Shown: piece by piece, positions 479 to 11,753 of the stretch | How the letters are laid out: every line of letters begins with the position of its first letter | Position numbering within the stretch: the stretch's first letter is position 1 | Assembly (NCBI GenBank): GCA_038888155.1 | Contig: JAWAJB010000001.1 | Span: 288,001-352,000, forward strand | Direction of reading: 5' to 3' | Length of the DNA stretch: 64,000 nt | Origin: Desulfurococcaceae archaeon | GTDB lineage: Archaea > Thermoproteota > Thermoprotei_A > Sulfolobales > Desulfurococcaceae | Translations under genes and position numbers: made by a program | Notes under the pieces: model-generated | What the model was told of the DNA's origin: nothing | Seen by the model: the letters and a program-made list of their open reading frames with translations, nothing else | Database searches by the model: none

Positions 479-1582
479 TTATGGATGTGGATTCTTCACG
501 CTTTCTCGGTCTTCGTTTTCTTGAGAATTTTTTTGAGGAGACGAGACCAGATTTAATGCGTCTTTTAATTTCTCTTTATCGACATAACCGTCAAGAATAC
601 GCACAATCTCTTTGAACTCGGGTCTTAAAGCGAGATGCCTAAAGGCGATTTCCTGGTTCGAATACTTGCTCCACGCTATTTTCCTAGATAGTTGACTGGA
701 GAGATCCGATATCTTTCTTCTAATGTCCTCTGGTACGGTCTTCCAGGATAAGCCGGCTACGATGATCGCTATCGCAGGCCTAGCGAACTGATCTCTTATA
801 AACGACCTTCCTATCTCAATAACCTTATAAGCTAGGTAGTTCAACACACCCGCGTAGTAGTAGGCTTGGTCCTGGTTTTCGCACTCTAGATATGCGACAT
901 GGCTTTCGGATACTGCTTTCGTGAGGTCCGTTGGTACGCATGCTGAGAACGTCCTCTGACATCTGTATATTACATAGTAGCGATTTTCGTCGAACATATC
1001 TATAAATGTCTTAAGCTCCGTAATTAGGGCATTAAGGTAGTTGAAGTCTCTTTGAGGCATTGCGTTTCGATTTAGCTCCACGAGGGTTTTCAGGAACTTC
1101 TTTAGGTCTTCATCGCCTCTCTTCGAGAGCAGAACGTTGTAAGTTCTGCAGCTGAACGGGTTTACCAGGCCCCTGTAGTATATTTTGTAGATGTCAACAC
1201 CATACCTGTTCATTAAGTCGATCGGTACGTTGTACGACTTGGTGAGGTTGCAGAGTCTAATGGATACGATTCCGCTCTTCGTACTGTACTGCTCTACAAT
1301 AAGTCCTGCGTACCCCGATTTACCCTTCTTCTTCTCACCTCCGAATAAACCCATTATGTAGCCTCCTTTTGGAACAACTCTTAGAACACCTAGTTCTCTT
1401 GCTATTCTCTCTGAGTCTTCCACAGCCCATGAAACCATTGGAGCAATGTAGTCGTCGTAGCTTGACTTAAGCTCCTCTATTTTCAATAAACTCTCTACTT
1501 CTTCTAGTGTCTTATTCTTTGAAATCCTTGAACTAGCTGTCTCCGCTGTGATCCTCAGTAGCTTAACCGGCACGCATCTCAC
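479..1582 (-). CDS. Putative target-recognition (specificity) part of a type IIG-like RM system
   Basis: Overlaps the end of the methylase ORF. YYYAGVLN-type motif and helical C-terminus resemble the C-terminal region of archaeal N-6 methylases. Confidence 0.6.
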   Translation of the reverse strand: MRCVPVKLLRITAETASSRISKNKTLEEVESLLKIEELKSSYDDYIAPMVSWAVEDSERIARELGVLRVVPKGGYIMGLFGGEKKKGKSGYAGLIVEQYSTKSGIVSIRLCNLTKSYNVPIDLMNRYGVDIYKIYYRGLVNPFSCRTYNVLLSKRGDEDLKKFLKTLVELNRNAMPQRDFNYLNALITELKTFIDMFDENRYYVIYRCQRTFSACVPTDLTKAVSESHVAYLECENQDQAYYYAGVLNYLAYKVIEIGRSFIRDQFARPAIAIIVAGLSWKTVPEDIRRKISDLSSQLSRKIAWSKYSNQEIAFRHLALRPEFKEIVRILDGYVDKEKLKDALNLVSSPQKNSQENEDRESVKNPHP

Positions 1583-3764
1583 CGGAGTATATCTTCTCCA
1601 TGATCTTTTTAACTACAACTACTGCGGGGTAGTTTCCATGCCCAAACGCATCGTAGTCAACGTCTATTAGCTTAACATCGCACTTTTCGAAGCTACTTCC
1701 ACAGATCTTCTCGATAATAGCGTAGGTTAAAAGAACGCCAGATCTCATCGGGCTTCTGGCATAGAACGACTGTTCTCTCGGCATCACGAATCCAACGCCC
1801 TCTTGTGCTATCTCAAGCGCTTTGTAAAGGGACATGCAGGCTACATCGGAACCGGTGACAACGGATGCCACTCTTTTTGCGTCGATCTTCAACACGTCAT
1901 TTAGGATTTTTTTGGCTTTTTCCCTGATAGACTCAATGTAAGTGGACTTATACCTAGTCATCGGAACCCAGGGTGGATTGGTAATTATCACGTGCGGTTT
2001 GAGAACTGTGGCCATGGATGGCATGATAGATGAAATTATGGTTGTAGCCCAGACACCGTTACCATACTTCTTTACCAACGTGCTCAACTTCTGAACAAAA
2101 TCGGTTTCATCTACTATTTTTTCAAACACATGCACCAGAAGATCTTCCTCTCTCAGATTCCTCAGATTCTTCAGCAGGTAATCTTTCAGCTCGTTCTCGA
2201 AACCCTCGTTGCTGGACAGGGAGATCTTTATACCAAGTGCGAGCAGTTGCTCTATCCTTGAGAGGGAAGTTAATAGTCGAAGGGGGTCCATCCGAGCGAA
2301 CGCAGATCCTTGCTCAATTTTCTTTGCATTAACGTGACTAATGACCGTGTTCACCACTCTCGTGTACTCCGGGTCCTTAAGGTCGAGGGCTTCTCCACCG
2401 TACCAAGCTGCGAGTGTGTCGGTGTGGTATATGCGTGGAGGAGATGGAGGGTTTTTTCCTGATACTCTACGAAAGGCAATTATCAGCTCAGCCCTAGCGA
2501 TAGCTACTGCGAGGGGGTTTACGTCGAACCCTACTAGTTCCTCGTAGGCGTTCTCCGGCTCTTCCTTTTCCTCATAGACTTTTCTGTAGAACGCTCTCAC
2601 CAGGAATGTTCCTGAACCGCAAAATGGGTCCATGACCAGCTTACCCTTGAGCTTGAATTCTTTTAGAATCATGTCTACTATCCACAGCGGTGTGTAGTAT
2701 TCACCTATTCTCCTGCGGGTCTCAGGCTCTACGAGAAACTCGTATAACTCTCTAAAGACATCTTCACCGGAGCCGAGCTCCCAGTCAACGAGGCGAGCTC
2801 TAGCAACCACTTCCTCGGCTACGTTCTCCACCTTGCTCTTGTATTCCTCTTTCATCTCTGGATGCGCTATCTTCCACCAGTTAAGGTATGGGAGTGCTAT
2901 GTCCAAGCTGTTACTATTAAAGGTCAGCAGAACACCGCTGCAAAGGTCGATTGGTTCGCCTACCAGTTTCAGTGCAGCTGCGAGACTAGCCATGACCATC
3001 ATGTGCATGAGGGTGTGTTTGACGAAGAGGTCTGCGTAGAAGCCCTCACCTACTGATTCGTCCTCACCATCCGACCTGTCTTCACCATAGAGTTGCTTCA
3101 TGATCTTCTTGTAAGCTTCGAAGAGGGGTCTTACTTTATCGTTTTCTCTAATACTATCGAACACTTCGCGCAACTCCTTGATCAACTTATCTGCGTTTAC
3201 AGTGTACAATGCCTCTATTGAGGCTGGATGTGGAGGTATTTTCAGGGCCTCCACTTTATCGGTGATTATTTGCTTTAGTACACTTACGGCTCCACTTCCT
3301 CCGTCTTCGTATATCCTCTCAAGTTTTATCTTGGGATCCCTCTGAACTCTGTAAATTCGCCATGAATCATAGTTTGTTACTACAAAGTACTCTACTTTCT
3401 TGAGGTGTGGTAAGTACTTGCTTGTAGCGTTCTCCACGGCCTGATCGAACTCTCTCTCACTGGACTTGTAATCAAACGCTATCGTTCCTCCAAACACAGC
3501 ATCAACTCTATACCTCTCGCTTCCAACGTACACCTCTTGAGGCATTAGAACTACAATGCCCTCCGAGACTTTGTCCTCGAGAAGGGATTGAAGAAGAACG
3601 AGCTCAAGACTCGGTTTAATCTTGGATCTCTCTCTTACAATACTTCTAAGAATGTTTATCAGTTCCATAGATACCTGCAACCTAACATTCTCATGCCAAG
3701 CTAATTTGCTACTGGACTTAACCTGGTCAAAACTAATGTATTTGTTATGTGTCACACTCGACAC
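1563..3764 (-). CDS. Type IIG-like restriction endonuclease / N6-adenine DNA methyltransferase
   Basis: GEYYTP, motif I DPFCGSGTFL, GFDVNPLA and motif IV NPPW (gamma order). N-terminal RVDAV..IAFDYK resembles a PD-(D/E)xK nuclease. Confidence 0.88.
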   Translation of the reverse strand: MSSVTHNKYISFDQVKSSSKLAWHENVRLQVSMELINILRSIVRERSKIKPSLELVLLQSLLEDKVSEGIVVLMPQEVYVGSERYRVDAVFGGTIAFDYKSSEREFDQAVENATSKYLPHLKKVEYFVVTNYDSWRIYRVQRDPKIKLERIYEDGGSGAVSVLKQIITDKVEALKIPPHPASIEALYTVNADKLIKELREVFDSIRENDKVRPLFEAYKKIMKQLYGEDRSDGEDESVGEGFYADLFVKHTLMHMMVMASLAAALKLVGEPIDLCSGVLLTFNSNSLDIALPYLNWWKIAHPEMKEEYKSKVENVAEEVVARARLVDWELGSGEDVFRELYEFLVEPETRRRIGEYYTPLWIVDMILKEFKLKGKLVMDPFCGSGTFLVRAFYRKVYEEKEEPENAYEELVGFDVNPLAVAIARAELIIAFRRVSGKNPPSPPRIYHTDTLAAWYGGEALDLKDPEYTRVVNTVISHVNAKKIEQGSAFARMDPLRLLTSLSRIEQLLALGIKISLSSNEGFENELKDYLLKNLRNLREEDLLVHVFEKIVDETDFVQKLSTLVKKYGNGVWATTIISSIMPSMATVLKPHVIITNPPWVPMTRYKSTYIESIREKAKKILNDVLKIDAKRVASVVTGSDVACMSLYKALEIAQEGVGFVMPREQSFYARSPMRSGVLLTYAIIEKICGSSFEKCDVKLIDVDYDAFGHGNYPAVVVVKKIMEKIYSGEMRAG

Positions 3765-3767
3765 CGT

Positions 3768-3965
3768 TTATTTTCTGGGTTTCATCTTGACTACAAAAAC
3801 TGTGTGCTTACCCCTCGGCGAAGTACCCTCATAGTGGTTGAACACGCCTTTACACTTAGGGCACTCGAGCATTCTGACCTCGTAGAACCCGTACCTCCAG
3901 GGCTCCCGCAGTAGCTTAAAGCTGCTTGCATCGGATTCGAAACTGCAGAACGGGCACTTAACCAC
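3768..3965 (-). CDS. Small Zn-ribbon protein (CPFC...CPKC)
   Basis: Two CxxC pairs. A GAGGTGA RBS precedes GTG at 3965, so the start is shortened relative to the ORF track. Confidence 0.75.
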   Translation of the reverse strand: MVKCPFCSFESDASSFKLLREPWRYGFYEVRMLECPKCKGVFNHYEGTSPRGKHTVFVVKMKPRK

Positions 3966-3970
3966 GCTGC

Positions 3971-4120
3971 TCACCTCTGCGCTTTCCTGATGTGGATTGC
4001 ACTGTTCTCGAAAACCCACTCGATCTCATCGTTCTCCCTCAGCTCAAGGAGCTTGCGAACCTCCCTGGGAACAGTTGCCCCGTAGTACCCGCCGATCCCG
4101 GTTCGAGCCACAACGAGCAT
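3971..4120 (-). CDS. AbrB/MazE/SpoVT-family DNA-binding protein
   Basis: TVPREVRKLLELRENDEIEWV is a typical AbrB signature; likely ATG at 4120. Confidence 0.8.
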   Translation of the reverse strand: MLVVARTGIGGYYGATVPREVRKLLELRENDEIEWVFENSAIHIRKAQR

Positions 4121-4388
4121 AAACCCTGCAGCACCCACTATAGAAAACCCCCGCTCAAGCATAAAACCTTTCACAAAGACAAACAAGCACAAAACAGGAC
4201 AAACCAAGCAGAAAGCAAACAAAACAATTGGGTGAAGACACGGCAACTTTGTCCCAACGCGTTCTGATTGACTCCACACTGTTAGAATGAGTCAGCGCAG
4301 TGTATAACGCCGTGCAACACGTCTCTACAACTGTGTAACAGCAATAGTACTGTTTTAAAACGGTTTCTATATACTACGGGTGAGCTGA

Positions 4389-4757
4389 GTGCCGAGGAGA
4401 CCTAGGAGAGAGGTTGACTACGAGTACAGTGTGAAAGCCTTGATGAGCAAAGACGAGAGAAAAGAGATCGTCGCGGCAATACTCGAAACACTGGCCAAGG
4501 AGCCCTTGACGACAAGCGAGGTCTCCCGCCGGGTCATCGCGGCGATGGGTAAACCGGTTCCAAGGTGGAGGATATACAGGACGCTACGGCTCCTCGAGAA
4601 GTACGGCTTCGTGAAGGCGAGGAAAATAATGTTCGAGAAGCAGTTGCTCTGGTGCACTACCGAGAGAACTGAATCGCTGCTGAGTACACTTCGCGGCCAT
4701 CGGGATCATACACAACAACCCTCCCATCGCGCACGGCAACAAAGTAGCCAGCACTGA
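4389..4757 (+). CDS. Winged helix-turn-helix DNA-binding protein
   Basis: PLTTSEVSRRV...RIYRTLRLLEKYGFV wHTH pattern; GGTGA RBS upstream. The 3' end overlaps the convergent ATPase gene. Confidence 0.75.
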   Translation: MPRRPRREVDYEYSVKALMSKDERKEIVAAILETLAKEPLTTSEVSRRVIAAMGKPVPRWRIYRTLRLLEKYGFVKARKIMFEKQLLWCTTERTESLLSTLRGHRDHTQQPSHRARQQSSQH

Positions 4758-7557
4758 TGAAACCGATGAGAATGCCGTACTCCTTCTCATCAACGCAAAC
4801 CCTAAACCCACCGGACACCGCGAGCTCTCTGCACTGCTGAGAGATCCGGCCAGGCTCACCAAGTGCAGTAACCACGGGCTCAGCGGCAACAGGCTTCTCC
4901 TCGCCGGCGGCTTGCACAGCTGGAGAAGCAGCCGCGGCTTCCTCCACGCGAGCAATCTTAGCTTCCTCCATCTTCACCGAGAATATCTTTACTTTGCCGT
5001 GGACTTCTCCGTGCTTCTCATACAGCTGCCTGAGCTTCTCGAAGCATTTCTCATCGGTCCAGCTGTGGATCTCCTTAAAGTCCTTGGCGGATTCTTTAAT
5101 CCAGTTTCTCACCACATGCTCTGGATGCGTCTCGAGCTCATTACAGGACTCTACCTCTATAGCAACAGCATTAGAGTAGAGGGGTCTCCAAGTCGATTTA
5201 TCGACTGGTACCGCCACGAGGTCCGGTCTAGCCTTGACCGATGGATCTTGCTTAGCGGGTAGAACCACGTATCCCTTACCATAGTATTTCAGCAAAACCC
5301 TTCTAGCTATCCCGTACCCCTCTTCGCTCGGAGCCGCCTGCTTAAGACCCCTGAACAGTCCTTTAATATAGACCAACATCTTTCTATTTCCTTCACGTTC
5401 AACCTCAATGTAGCCTAGTGCGCTAAGCCGGGCAACAGCGTCCTCGAGGTCTCTTCTGGGAGCACCAAGCCTTGTGGCTAAATCGGTGAGAGCTATTCTC
5501 TTAGACTTGTATATCTCGTATAATGCAAGCATTTCAAGGGGTCTAACAGGGTCTATGTATTTTAGCAATGTGTTGAGCATGCTCTTCAAATCAGCTTTAA
5601 CCGCTTCATCGGGATCAAAGATCTTCGTATATATGTTCTCTCTTGCAACTCTATGCTCTACATAGTCCATTTGCACTAAAACAGGTGGAGGTTGTTGCTC
5701 ACCTGGTCGAGCAGTAACTTTCACTACGGCTCTACCAATCGTTAAGCCCGTCAAAGCCTCTGCCAAAGCGTCTGCGAAAGAAGCATCCATCATTGATAAT
5801 CTTTTAATATCGCTACCGCCGACCATGAACGCTACTTTCACAGCGCAGTTTGTTAGAATGGACTGTAGTAGCGTCTGCGGTATCTGCCCTGTATGTTGAT
5901 GCGCTATAATCAAGTGCAACCCATACTTTCTCGCCTCCGAGAGAACAGTATCGATAACCGGTAAATCGGCTACGAACTGGAACTCATCTATGATCAGGAA
6001 TACAGGTGTTCTGGGTCTGTTTAAACGTGCACGCGCTAGAGCTTCGAACCACAGCTTCATCACTATGGTGCTAGCTACTAGTCTTGCAAAGTTCTCCCCT
6101 AGGTCTGCCTTGGGTATCGAGAATATGGTGATCGATCCAGGCGATAGAAGCTTATCCATATCTATAGTTGTTTTAGATGTCAGCCTCAAGAGCAACTTGT
6201 CATGTGCATAAGCTTCAAGCCTTGAAAGCGCTGAAATAAATGTCTGGTCCTGCATGTTCTGCAATGCTTCCAACTGCGCTTGCCACTCAACATCATCTAT
6301 ATCTAAGTCTAATTCTCCCTTGTATAGAGCTAGAATTGCATTGTAAAGATCTGCCATCTTGGGAGAATCCGATTTAGAGTAGAGCGCTCGTAATATTACC
6401 TGCAACAAGTACTTCACGTTTACGGCAGTCTCCATCAGCTTCAAGACCTCTTTGAAAATCTCTAACAGAATGTCTATAGCGATAGACACAGCGTGGTCTC
6501 TGTCCTCGATCTTTGGGAGGTCTAACGGGTTTAACCCAAACGGGCTCTTGATGGGGCATAGGTATATCGACTCGGGGATTTCCTCGGCCAATTCTCGTGC
6601 CATGTCTCCATGGGGGTCCACTATAACTATCGAGGCGCTTCCAAGCTCTTTCAACCTATGAACAAGTAGCTTGATGAAAGAGGTTTTGCCGGATCCTGTT
6701 TGCCCAATAACGTATACGTGCCTAAACATGTCCTCTAGGCCTAGCCTGAACTCGCGACCATCCTCCAAGACGCCTATGCGAAAGCTCCTTTCACCAGTTC
6801 TCTCGGGTATGACTAGAGGTAGAGGCGACCCCCTCACGAAGCCTATCTTGTGTAGGCTTGGATCTGGCAACCTCATGATTTCGTGGAGCAGATCCTCGGT
6901 AAGCACTATTTTGTTTCTTTCGCCGATCAGCCTTTCAAGAAAGCCTAGCTTAGGTGGTTGCAACAGCCTCTCTAAATCGCATTGTTTCCTAGCCTTCTTC
7001 CTCTCCCAGGAGAGCCTTACGCTGCATGAGCCCTCTACGAGCTTTTCTATGAGCTTACGCGATTTCTTGTCCGGCGCTAGGAGTAGTACCTTGCCCAATA
7101 CAACTTTGCTTACGCGGTTTCGCAGTAGCTTAGCCCTCTCCCTGTATGCTTGATTATTATACTTCACTGATTTATTCATCAGCTTCGAGATCTCATTAGC
7201 GAAGACCATCTTTAAGCCCGGGTCTCGGGCGATGCTTACGCAAACTCCGCTTACACTATTAAGCGAGTTCACGAGGCCGGCTATATCTGAAACAACGATG
7301 TCCGTGAACCAGAAGTCAAAGCAGTTCTTTAACCTTGCATCCGATGCGTGTATTTCACTATTGAATAATTGTAATATGCTGTTGTAGCTAGCTTTTGAGA
7401 CACCGAAGAAGTTCTTCAGCGTGTCAATAGATATTGGTGTTTCTACAAATACGTGTAGCTTCTTTGAGTCGTTCACAATGCACAGCGTGAACTCAGGCCC
7501 AAAGACAGAGAATGGCGGCTTCGAGGAGCCAACTCTGGGCAAGAGCTCAACGAGCAC
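4657..7557 (-). CDS. TraG/VirD4/HerA-like DNA-transfer ATPase with C-terminal wHTH and PD-(D/E)xK-like extension
   Basis: RHVYVIGQTGSGKT (Walker A), IVDPHGD, FGLNPL, IIDEFQ (Walker B), SEARKYGLHLIIAHQ; GGTGA RBS before GTG. Confidence 0.85.
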   Translation of the reverse strand: MLVELLPRVGSSKPPFSVFGPEFTLCIVNDSKKLHVFVETPISIDTLKNFFGVSKASYNSILQLFNSEIHASDARLKNCFDFWFTDIVVSDIAGLVNSLNSVSGVCVSIARDPGLKMVFANEISKLMNKSVKYNNQAYRERAKLLRNRVSKVVLGKVLLLAPDKKSRKLIEKLVEGSCSVRLSWERKKARKQCDLERLLQPPKLGFLERLIGERNKIVLTEDLLHEIMRLPDPSLHKIGFVRGSPLPLVIPERTGERSFRIGVLEDGREFRLGLEDMFRHVYVIGQTGSGKTSFIKLLVHRLKELGSASIVIVDPHGDMARELAEEIPESIYLCPIKSPFGLNPLDLPKIEDRDHAVSIAIDILLEIFKEVLKLMETAVNVKYLLQVILRALYSKSDSPKMADLYNAILALYKGELDLDIDDVEWQAQLEALQNMQDQTFISALSRLEAYAHDKLLLRLTSKTTIDMDKLLSPGSITIFSIPKADLGENFARLVASTIVMKLWFEALARARLNRPRTPVFLIIDEFQFVADLPVIDTVLSEARKYGLHLIIAHQHTGQIPQTLLQSILTNCAVKVAFMVGGSDIKRLSMMDASFADALAEALTGLTIGRAVVKVTARPGEQQPPPVLVQMDYVEHRVARENIYTKIFDPDEAVKADLKSMLNTLLKYIDPVRPLEMLALYEIYKSKRIALTDLATRLGAPRRDLEDAVARLSALGYIEVEREGNRKMLVYIKGLFRGLKQAAPSEEGYGIARRVLLKYYGKGYVVLPAKQDPSVKARPDLVAVPVDKSTWRPLYSNAVAIEVESCNELETHPEHVVRNWIKESAKDFKEIHSWTDEKCFEKLRQLYEKHGEVHGKVKIFSVKMEEAKIARVEEAAAASPAVQAAGEEKPVAAEPVVTALGEPGRISQQCRELAVSGGFRVCVDEKEYGILIGFISAGYFVAVRDGRVVVYDPDGREVYSAAIQFSR

Positions 7558-7631
7558 GAGGGCTCACCTTTTGCGGTGGATCCAAATTTGGAAACCACGG
7601 ATCATCTTACACACCTCCATTGGAAGAGCGC

Positions 7632-7646
7632 GTGCTTTAAAAGCAC
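7632..7646. promoter_or_regulatory. Inverted repeat GTGCTTT-A-AAAGCAC containing a TATA-like box in the divergent ATPase/pilin intergenic region
   Basis: Perfect 7-1-7 inverted repeat; TTTAAAA lies ~30 bp upstream of the pilin ATG. Confidence 0.5.
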
Positions 7647-7671
7647 TCCACATCTTAAACGGGGGTGTATT

Positions 7672-7992
7672 ATGAGGGTTTGCTTAAAGCCGAAGAGAGC
7701 GTTGGTCCCAATAACAACGCTACTTGCTCTAGCAGCCAATGCAGCTGTAGCCCAGCAGGTGCCAATAACAGTTGTGCCATCTCCACCGCCGGGCATCTCA
7801 GAGCCCATACAGAGGCTGCTCAGCTGGCTCGCGTGGGGCGGGTGGATAGCTGTAGCAGCTGCCTTCATTTTAGGCGCAATAAACTTCATAGTGGGGGACA
7901 GCGAGAAGGGGAAGAAGTACATTGCGGGGGCAATAATTGGGGCTATAATTATGGCCTTCTACTCAGCGTTAATAGCTGGGCTTATAGGATAG
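7672..7992 (+). CDS. VirB2/TrbC-like (CedA1/TedC-like) conjugative-type pilin
   Basis: Signal peptide ending AAVA-Q, then two hydrophobic helices split by the charged loop GDSEKGKKY. 106 aa from ATG 7672 with GGGGGTG RBS. Confidence 0.6.
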   Translation: MRVCLKPKRALVPITTLLALAANAAVAQQVPITVVPSPPPGISEPIQRLLSWLAWGGWIAVAAAFILGAINFIVGDSEKGKKYIAGAIIGAIIMAFYSALIAGLIG

Positions 7993-8224
7993 CCTCTACG
8001 CAGCTTTTCGCTACGCTCAACCTATTACCTCGGGTTTCTACTCGCTGTGCCCTGCACTTTTGTGCAATAGCGCGACTTCGGGACAACGCAAGTGAGAGCA
8101 GCTCAATGAATCTCAGCGAGTGCGCTTTTTCAACCGCTCCTCTAAAATTGGAGACAAAGGCAGATTAAGCGAGCTCCTTGGAGCGCGGCTTTTTAAGCTC
8201 AAATTAGTTCTTCGGGGTACAGCT

Positions 8225-8674
8225 TTGAAAGAGAAGAAGGCCATTAAGGGCGTCAGCGAGCTGATCACCATTATCAGCATACTGCTAGTAGCTGTAGTAG
8301 CTGTGTTCTCTTTTAGGGCCTGGGTCTCCTCGCAACAGCAGAGAATGGGCAGCATTGACATGGCCACTGCAACGTACAGCGTCCAGTACACTTCACCCGG
8401 CAACGCAGCTGTATCATTGCTTGTGAGGAACAACATGCCCAGTAGCATAAATGTAGCGAACGTGACTGCGATACTGTCAAACAACGCAGTGCTTTTCGCG
8501 GGCCAGAACTTCACAACTACGCCCGCTATTCCAGTTTCAACCTCAGCGAAATCTGACACTTTAATCTTCCTGACGATCTCAGGGCTACAGAACGCTGCAA
8601 TTAGGGAGCTGAGCGTGCAAATAGTTGACCCATCCACTAACCAAACGCAGTGGATTAAAGCTGTAGGGGGCTAG
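8225..8674 (+). CDS. Archaeal type IV pilin (class III signal peptide)
   Basis: KKAIKG/VSELITIISILLVAVVAV: basic leader, KG cleavage site, hydrophobic N-helix, then beta-rich domain. Probable TTG start at 8225. Confidence 0.8.
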   Translation: MKEKKAIKGVSELITIISILLVAVVAVFSFRAWVSSQQQRMGSIDMATATYSVQYTSPGNAAVSLLVRNNMPSSINVANVTAILSNNAVLFAGQNFTTTPAIPVSTSAKSDTLIFLTISGLQNAAIRELSVQIVDPSTNQTQWIKAVGG

Positions 8675-11675: not shown

Positions 11676-11753
11676 TGGTGCGGCGGCCGGGATTTGAACC
11701 CGGGATCTCCGGCGTGGCAGGCCGGCGTCCTAGACCAGCTAGACTACCGCCGC
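11676..11753 (-). tRNA. tRNA-Gly(GCC), intronless, CCA encoded
   Basis: GCGGCGG acceptor stem, anticodon arm CCGGC-CTGCCAC-GCCGG, GGTTCAAATCC T-arm. Confidence 0.97.

Follow-up and report, generated by a model that had tools for sequence, protein, structure and literature searches.

The 64,000-nucleotide stretch of DNA analyzed here (the window) spans positions 288,001 to 352,000 on the forward strand of contig JAWAJB010000001.1, from the Desulfurococcaceae archaeon assembly GCA_038888155.1. On its minus strand lies a gene, traG, whose product belongs to the TraG/VirD4 type and carries, after a coupling-type ATPase, a winged helix-turn-helix (wHTH) and a second C-terminal domain with the predicted fold of PD-(D/E)xK nucleases (Table 1). 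We propose, with some reserve, that TraG proteins of this kind may both open and transport the DNA of archaeal conjugative elements. The initial annotation of this open reading frame (ORF) had located a Walker A motif (GQTGSGKT, residues 285–292, nt 6682–6705), a Walker B motif (IIDEFQ, residues 522–527, nt 5977–5994), the wHTH and a signature of the form RPD-x21-EVES, and translation returns the ORF and all four features where they had been placed; the signature corresponds to nt 5146–5229, which encode R777-P778-D779, 21 residues, and then E801-V-E803-S804.

The protein is almost certainly a TraG/VirD4-type ATPase of archaeal conjugative elements, TrwB-like and within the HerA-FtsK superfamily, judging from its family matches. 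The Pfam matches that exceed their cut-offs are DUF87/HerA (residues 261–485, 7e-17), TrwB_AAD_bind (6e-11), TraG-D_C (6e-8) and T4SS-DNA_transf (9e-8). NCBIfam matches to a VirD4-like conjugation family (3e-18), CedD (6e-18), VirB4 and HerA all fall far under their cut-offs, and the curated equivalog cut-offs of that collection are not reached by any family, the best being conju_CD1115 with 65.9 bits against a required 250. The N-terminal domain resembles DUF8128-DUF87-TrwB proteins and the N-domain of VirB4 (TM scores of 0.62–0.70 in a structure search of the ESM Atlas, using the Atlas's own model) and may be the part that docks on a membrane partner. A hydropathy scan with a 19-residue window detects no membrane helix anywhere in the protein, an N-terminal anchor included, in agreement with what the initial annotation had noted. 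The tail has a weak match to DUF5678 (E 0.033).

Comparison with plasmids places the protein more closely. A tblastn search of 72,556 plasmid records matched 116 of them, 14 covering at least 80% of the query. The best 17 rows are all archaeal, from Thermococcus or Sulfolobales plasmids, with alignments reaching up to residue 863; the remaining plasmid rows listed (haloarchaea, Streptomyces, Bacillus) match the ATPase only. Over residues 4–863, the TraG proteins of pT33-3, pNOB8, pING1, pARN3 and pAH1 are 35–42% identical to the window's TraG (pT33-3 41.9%, pARN3 38.2% and pNOB8 36.9%, at E ≤ 1e-150), and ORF1019 of pTC1 is also among the matches. The matched coding sequences (CDS) are 1025 amino acids (aa) long in pNOB8 and 1370 aa in pT33-3 (NZ_OX281346.1, Thermococcus nautili 33-3). 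Because the plasmid matches are collinear and the residues of the C-terminal module are kept, the window's protein is assigned to the TraG family of archaeal conjugative plasmids; by sequence comparison its orthologues are the TraG proteins of Thermococcus pT33-3 and of conjugative plasmids from Sulfolobales, and it adds one member to an already known family. Members of this family are required for transfer where this has been examined. Conjugation of pM164 and Hfr-like, unidirectional transfer of the chromosome in Sulfolobus islandicus are both reported to require the plasmid's traG gene (PMC9899855), and unidirectional transfer of this kind implies a defined start. In pT33-3, mutation of the VirB4- and VirD4-like genes abolished conjugation, according to a review (PMC12857230).

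The region following the ATPase was modeled with AlphaFold2 (AF2). Residues 645–870, supported by an alignment of 29 homologues, give a model with a mean predicted local distance difference test score (pLDDT) of 91.7 and a predicted TM score (pTM) of 0.85, in which a winged helix precedes an alpha-beta-beta-beta-alpha-beta core; residues 735–870 were folded alone, since the winged helix swamped the structure searches with two domains, and give the same core (pLDDT 92.2). The winged helix aligns with MarR (3bpx: Z 11.8 over 65 aa, root-mean-square deviation [rmsd] 1.4, VIA-align), followed by dozens of similar rows, and residues 673–723 match Pfam MarR_2 at 3e-4, under the cut-off. When the nuclease-like domain was compared with 48,161 representative chains, the best match was PaqCI (Z 9.0 over 120 aa, rmsd 3.4), with SPO1766, AF1548 and an XisH-like protein next (Z 8.3–8.4), these being the four chains at Z ≥ 8; below them are BstEII, YaeQ, NucS, SdaI, Can2, VRR-NUC, HamA, LlaBIII, BglII, Hjc and BamHI. 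Foldseek returns the same kinds of protein, EcoT38I being the best at E 5e-3 and none reaching E ≤ 1e-3. The matches are almost wholly PD-(D/E)xK nucleases, and it is the consistency of this list, not any one match, on which the assignment of fold depends. The second C-terminal domain is thus modeled with a PD-(D/E)xK fold of the restriction type, and the order of domains that the initial annotation had suggested (coupling-type ATPase, wHTH, restriction-like fold) is borne out by Pfam, the AF2 models and the fold searches together.

In the model the charged residues of the signature belong to a putative active centre. E745 and E746 open helix 1, D779 lies directly before strand 2, E801 and E803 are on strand 3, and N818 and K821 are predicted on the helix that follows strand 3. 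The place of the canonical lysine in the (D/E)xK motif is taken by a glutamate, E803. A glutamate at this position is familiar from BamHI-type enzymes. Neither phmmer nor a profile hmmsearch of the module against the sequences of the PDB gives anything under E 0.2, and Pfam nuclease families are absent from all 18 module sequences aligned (see below). A two-copy model of residues 645–870 scored 0.00 against a mark of 0.42, a result that is silent on nicking versus double-strand cutting. From the modeled fold and the conserved residues, the domain is probably an active nuclease.

The module is conserved among homologues. An initial search for homologues yielded 72 close relatives (E ≤ 1e-145), encoded in metagenome bins of Ignisphaera, Desulfurococcaceae, Zestosphaera, Fervidicoccaceae and Sulfolobales and on one Thermococcus plasmid. 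The module is present in 30 of 32 relatives that were aligned, with P778, D779, E801, E803 and K821 invariant or nearly so; H811 and N818 are nearly invariant among the 30 module-bearing homologues. A second, broader alignment of 18 sequences joins the window's TraG to six TraGs of plasmids and to eleven homologues encoded in genomes (Archaeoglobi, Pyrodictiaceae, Acidilobaceae, Stygiolobus, Marsarchaeota and others). Here D779 is kept in 15 of 18 (two have lysine and one a gap), E801 in 17/17, E803 in 15 (alanine in two) and K821 in 15 (arginine in two), compared with 18/18 for K291, D524 and E525 of the ATPase. The gapped sequence (L022) is frameshifted, yet retains all four residues of the D/E/E/K set. 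The D and ExE residues singled out by the initial annotation are therefore retained among homologues, the pNOB8 TraG included. The substitutions D779K, E803A and K821R all fall in one related pair from Archaeoglobi-type contigs (L025 and L026), in which the positions of H811 and N818 are also absent; the centre of these two looks naturally inactivated inside an otherwise intact nuclease-like domain. Mean column identity is 0.70 in the ATPase, 0.62 in the nuclease-like domain, 0.57 in the winged helix, 0.46 in the N-domain and 0.33 in the tail, which ranks the nuclease-like domain second in conservation, behind the ATPase, and makes the N-domain the least conserved of the globular parts. The start of the recognition helix of the winged helix differs among clades, which would fit the reading of element-specific sites.

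The nuclease-like domain is also rarely found apart from TraG. A profile built from the 18 sequences matched 151 of 1.84 billion representative proteins at E ≤ 1e-3. All eight of the long matches that were scanned are TrwB/TraG-type ATPases, some of them only ~620–670 aa long and starting at the ATPase, and the two short matches scanned belong to no family. By tblastn the module is found in 17 of the 72,556 plasmids, all from Sulfolobus, Saccharolobus, Acidianus or Thermococcus and each time under a traG CDS; no bacterial plasmid in that set matched, and neither did any of 50,697 phage records. In each of five genomes with a long TraG the sole match to the module lies inside traG. As far as such searches can tell, fusion to TraG-type ATPases is nearly the sole setting of the nuclease-like module. 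The gene itself is patchily distributed, being present in 11 of 61 genomes and 8 of 36 genera of the order (its own genome counted). Short TraGs were also seen, in genomes G022, G044, G055, G023 and G034, where the match spans residues 2 to ~640; all three genomes of one genus have the short form, and three of the five matches contain in-frame stops.

The genes surrounding traG are listed in Table 1. Divergent from it is a plus-strand operon of genes for two pilin-like proteins, a FlaI-type ATPase and a TadC-like membrane protein, beyond which are a tRNA-Gly (11676–11753) and the gene for glyceraldehyde-3-phosphate dehydrogenase (GAPDH). In the same contig upstream of the window (L002) are a VirB4-like ATPase and a large polytopic membrane protein, the latter matching at residues 131–218 the candidate phyla radiation (CPR) pilus protein PamR (RbmA-like) at 4.5e-9; other genes there code for a 108-aa protein with two helices, a P4-family primase (over its NCBIfam cut-off), a primase-polymerase (prim-pol) with PriX, and an HNH nuclease, and host-type genes (subtilase, ferritin) lie to the left of the cluster. 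Linked homologues of several of these genes recur with traG in 30 related loci: the VirB4-like ATPase in 9, the 703-aa membrane protein in 11, the FlaI-like ATPase in 11, the TadC-like protein in 8, the 693-aa and 108-aa proteins in 6 each, and the 138-aa and 184-aa pilin-like proteins in 5 each. These counts are lower bounds, because many of the loci are short contigs. Thaumarchaeal integrative-conjugative elements (ICEs) contain VirB4, VirD4, VirB6, TadC, FlaI and pilins (PMC6563490), and the make-up of the present cluster is the same. TraG thus lies in a chromosomal, conjugative gene cluster resembling a type IV secretion system (T4SS), beside a replication module of plasmid type. None of the other cluster proteins has a tblastn match in the parts of the Sulfolobales plasmids that were searched.

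Table 1. Coordinates of traG, of the domains it encodes and of neighboring genes. Positions are those of the window, or of the same-contig DNA upstream of it where prefixed L002.
Feature	Position	Strand	Basis
traG/virD4-like gene, 966 aa	4657–7557	−	open ORF; Pfam; plasmid TraG matches
N-terminal domain, residues 1–255, DUF8128/VirB4-N-like fold, no transmembrane (TM) helix	6793–7557	−	structure search, hydropathy scan
HerA/FtsK-TrwB-type P-loop ATPase, residues 256–640	5638–6792	−	Pfam; invariant K291, D524, E525
wHTH, residues 673–735	5353–5541	−	AF2 model; MarR match
PD-(D/E)xK-fold nuclease-like domain (predicted), residues 740–861	4975–5340	−	AF2, fold matches, conservation
Variable Ala/Glu/Pro-rich linker and small C-terminal beta-rich tail, residues 862–966	4660–4974	−	poorly conserved
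138-aa protein, signal-like segment and two hydrophobic helices, candidate VirB2/CedA1-type pilin	7576–7992	+	T4SS_pilin E 0.041 (under cut-off), TM scan
184-aa protein, one N-terminal hydrophobic helix, type IV pilin-like	8120–8674	+	TM scan; no family
FlaI/TadA/VirB11-type secretion ATPase, 489 aa	8698–10167	+	Pfam T2SSE 1e-21; NCBIfam FlaI 5e-44, TadA 2e-38 (under cut-offs)
UpsF/TadC-like polytopic membrane protein, 485 aa	10164–11621	+	NCBIfam UpsF 1.6e-5; ~8 hydrophobic segments
N6-adenine DNA methyltransferase (P0002), 733 aa, type IIG/MmeI-like	1563–3764	−	N6_Mtase 6e-12; PADLOC REase_MTase_IIG 8e-23, mad2 1e-14
VirB4-like ATPase	L002:9244–11070		AAA_10/DUF87/TraG P-loop; conju_CD1110 4e-31
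703-aa membrane protein, candidate VirB6/CedA-like channel	L002:11565–13676	+	~10 hydrophobic segments
693-aa soluble protein	L002:5201–7282	−	no family
373-aa protein	L002:7711–8832	−	N-terminus faintly BasB-like (pilin-like), 1e-4

Between traG and the left end of the window are genes of other kinds. The methyltransferase has weak N-terminal matches of the MmeI_N/HSDR_N type and overlaps a 367-aa protein (P0003; the pair occupies 479–3764 on the minus strand) that belongs to no family and has a faint AbrEii-type match (0.003); the two may be restriction-modification or methylation cargo of the element. Two minus-strand genes (3971–4279/3768–4019) code for a protein with an AbrB/MazE-like SpoVT domain (residues 66–100, E 4e-6) following two or three hydrophobic segments and, after it, an 83-aa protein with two cysteine pairs (zinc ribbon). 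Homologues of the methyltransferase, P0003, the AbrB-like and zinc-ribbon proteins, the primase, the prim-pol and the HNH nuclease are found in none of the 30 related loci. A 122-aa TrmB/ArsR-like winged-helix protein (4389–4757, plus strand) is encoded convergently, and its ORF as called runs into traG over the final ~33 codons of that gene; in one related locus, L007, a homologue with 35% identity lies on the downstream side of traG.

No borders of the element could be recognized. Direct repeats of at least 14 nt from the tRNA-Gly region are absent elsewhere in 68 kb, except for T-arm matches to other tRNAs, and no repeat of at least 11 nt joins the left junction to the tRNA-Gly side. The contig has no tyrosine recombinase and the genome no serine recombinase. 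The flanking GAPDH and subtilase genes were followed into 20 relatives, which are too distant for an empty site to be shown. The intergenic regions at 3900–4700 and 7400–8200, which take in the two stretches that the initial annotation had singled out, contain no repeat arrays; the repeats of 10–21 nt and the short inverted repeats seen there are no longer than chance alone would give. At L003:660–687 (contig positions 250660–250687) a segment of 28 nt repeats the T-arm region of the tRNA-Gly without a mismatch, in the opposite orientation; ARAGORN calls no tRNA there, and the segment could be part of a broken tRNA gene or belong to an intron-bearing tRNA that was missed. The source of the contig also deserves comment. 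At 2.42 Mb (6.4% contamination) the assembly is larger than the 12 genomes labeled as the same genus (~0.9–1.5 Mb), and the GAPDH encoded on the contig shares 36–38% identity with the copies in that genus but 42–48% with copies from other families of the order. An organism other than the one named by the bin label may be the source of the contig.

The presence of a nuclease-like domain in TraG bears on a long-standing gap. Reviews and primary papers, as far as their text was covered, report no known relaxase for archaeal conjugative elements (PMC12857230 and PMC6563490 among them), and reviews of 2023 and 2025 describe archaeal relaxases as unknown and the preparation of DNA for transfer as unclear. 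This literature agrees with the initial annotation, which had remarked that conjugation of the pNOB8 type lacks a recognized relaxase. In the portions of PMC9899855 that were covered the words relaxase, nuclease and oriT are never used, and a literature search, outside which lay the supplements (Supplementary Figure 2 of PMC9899855 and data file 1 of PMC6563490), found no description of a nuclease domain in an archaeal TraG. The initial annotation had further proposed a kinship with relaxases of the MOB_C/Replic_Relax group. In MOB_C relaxases such as TraX of pAD1, according to a review, an N-terminal winged helix is combined with an active site related to PD-(D/E)xK, and no covalent intermediate is reported. 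The sequences do not support a kinship. The Replic_Relax family PF13814 has no match to residues 645–870 at E ≤ 10, to any of the 18 module sequences or in the genome, and the same profile matched the MOB_C protein of pTEF1, used as a positive control, at 2e-6, over its cut-off; alignment of the module profile to that protein with hhalign gives a probability of 1.5%. The module is therefore ruled out as a sequence member of MOB_C, and the likeness is one of architecture only. The genome also lacks PF03432, the family of MOB_P/Q-type relaxases.

We suggest the following scheme for the initiation of transfer. The winged helix of TraG would recognize a site on the element, and the restriction-like domain, with a metal centre formed by D779, E801 and E803, would nick or cut the DNA there; the hexameric motor of the same polypeptide would then feed the freed strand or end into a membrane channel. 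Because it has no membrane anchor, TraG would have to dock on a membrane partner, for which the polytopic protein and the VirB4-like ATPase are candidates. TraG would in this way be a combined 'cut-and-pump' protein, standing in for the separate relaxase of bacteria. We regard the whole of this scheme as having close to an even chance of being right. The more specific proposal, that TraG is a self-contained relaxase and coupling protein whose BamHI-like D/ExE centre opens DNA without a covalent intermediate, is plausible and rather more tentative. As to the form in which DNA moves, a single strand has been argued from the lumens of pili, as against the duplex suggested earlier for Sulfolobus plasmids (PMC6563490).

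Several observations weigh against the scheme. The fold match scores are middling (Z 9.0 and a Foldseek E of 5e-3 at best), no sequence link connects the module to any characterized nuclease in Pfam or among PDB sequences, and the replacement of the canonical lysine by E803 leaves the chemistry uncertain. Two Archaeoglobi variants have D779K together with E803A. Seven of the 72 close relatives are short TraGs of ~630–660 aa that end after the ATPase; at locus L017, which also has a short TraG, there is no module within 10 kb, and in all five short-TraG genomes searched the module is nowhere to be found, the long-form genomes serving as a positive control, so that similar clusters can exist without it. 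No oriT-like repeats, of the kind that might mark an origin of transfer, are seen near traG. The copy in the window may moreover be immobile, domesticated, fixed or decayed, since no recognizable integrase or attachment (att) repeats were found. Finally, FtsK and Streptomyces TraB achieve sequence-directed loading with a C-terminal wHTH alone.

In a different account of the module, the wHTH and the restriction-like domain would be non-catalytic and serve in DNA recognition, loading or the docking of a partner; TraG would translocate double-stranded DNA in the manner of FtsK or Streptomyces TraB, and any break that is needed would be supplied by a host enzyme such as HerA-NurA or a ParB-like nuclease. 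The combination of a HerA/FtsK-type core with a C-terminal wHTH is indeed present in the protein, and the replaced lysine, the retention of the domain in the two natural variants that have lost D779 and E803, and the short TraGs from genomes devoid of the module speak for such an account; in the literature on Ced/Ted, too, host nucleases have been proposed to supply the transfer substrate. Nonetheless, four charged residues at PD-(D/E)xK positions are invariant across Thermoproteota, Thermococcales and most Archaeoglobi at 30–40% identity, which is hard to explain if the domain is purely structural, and we consider a non-catalytic module unlikely. An active nuclease with another task, such as end-of-transfer trimming, the resolution of multimers or integrated copies, or an attack on resident or competing DNA (exclusion or anti-defence), seems to us improbable as well. 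PD-(D/E)xK domains have many roles, the nearest folds here include restriction enzymes, NucS, Hjc, an XisH-like excision factor and CRISPR ancillary nucleases, and the element has no integrase of known type; on the other hand, the strict fusion to a coupling ATPase points to action on the DNA being pumped, and Sulfolobales plasmids carry their own integrase (PMC9899855).

A role in defence was also entertained, since PADLOC assigns mad8 to residues 277–629 of TraG (2.4e-23) and both mad2 and a type IIG restriction-modification system to the downstream methyltransferase, which is encoded on the same strand. In that event the two genes would form an anti-phage system, either MADS-like or of the HerA-plus-nuclease kind, with methylation guarding self DNA. 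The mad8 match is confined to the ATPase core, however, and TraG is collinear with plasmid TraGs; the methyltransferase and P0003 occur in 0/30 of the related loci while the T4SS-type genes recur, so that synteny largely refutes this candidate and we think it very improbable. The make-up of the cluster is that of an ICE, and for this reason the mad8 and mad2 matches are taken to reflect generic domains, not MADS.

TraG is common to all proven archaeal conjugative plasmids and essential where tested, and carries conserved restriction-like and DNA-reading domains; a nuclease-like module found throughout the family is a concrete and cheaply testable candidate for the missing archaeal DNA-processing enzyme. 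The open question of the relaxase can now be reduced to a few point mutations and one nicking assay, with pM164 in Sulfolobus islandicus and pT33-3 in Thermococcus as the systems. If TraG is a self-contained relaxase and coupling protein, it would represent a new class of conjugative DNA-processing enzyme and would account for the fact that a relaxase gene has been found in no archaeal conjugative plasmid or ICE; clusters with a short TraG could then be suggested to be import-only or domesticated, no longer needing to cut. The gain from the present locus alone is modest, as it contributes one more family member in a cluster that is perhaps no longer mobile.

Several known systems resemble this arrangement in part. 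HerA-NurA, the large terminases of phages, and FtsK and Streptomyces TraB also join a DNA-moving ring ATPase to a nuclease, to a sequence-reading winged helix or to both. The nucleases of NurA and the terminases are RNase H-like, however, FtsK and TraB are not known to have one, and no member of this group is known to be located in a T4SS-like conjugation cluster. Bacterial type IV coupling proteins (TrwB, VirD4, TraD, TraG) share the nucleotide-binding domain with its TrwB_AAD_bind and TraG-D_C signatures; in contrast to them, the archaeal protein lacks an N-terminal membrane anchor and has a VirB4-N/DUF8128-like N-domain and the C-terminal wHTH/nuclease-like module. In the MOB_C relaxases (TraX of pAD1, MobC of CloDF13; PF13814 Replic_Relax) the winged helix likewise stands N-terminal to a centre of PD-(D/E)xK type, as it does in the model of TraG. 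These relaxases are small, separate proteins beside a coupling protein, as in pTEF1, whereas the archaeal module is part of the coupling protein itself. The VirD4-like protein of pT33-3, the best plasmid match, keeps the nuclease-like module and differs in being extended at the N-terminus and in its far longer C-terminal tail. The TraGs of the Sulfolobales plasmids (pNOB8, pING1, pARN3, pAH1, pTC1 ORF1019 and pM164) agree with the window's TraG in the N-terminal domain, the ATPase, the wHTH and the nuclease-like module with its D/E/E/K residues; they too have no TM anchor, and a TrbE/VirB4-like ATPase accompanies them. The window's gene differs from theirs in its setting, being chromosomal on a Desulfurococcales-type contig without a detected integrase, and adjoining a FlaI/TadC/pilin operon and a module of P4-type primase and prim-pol.

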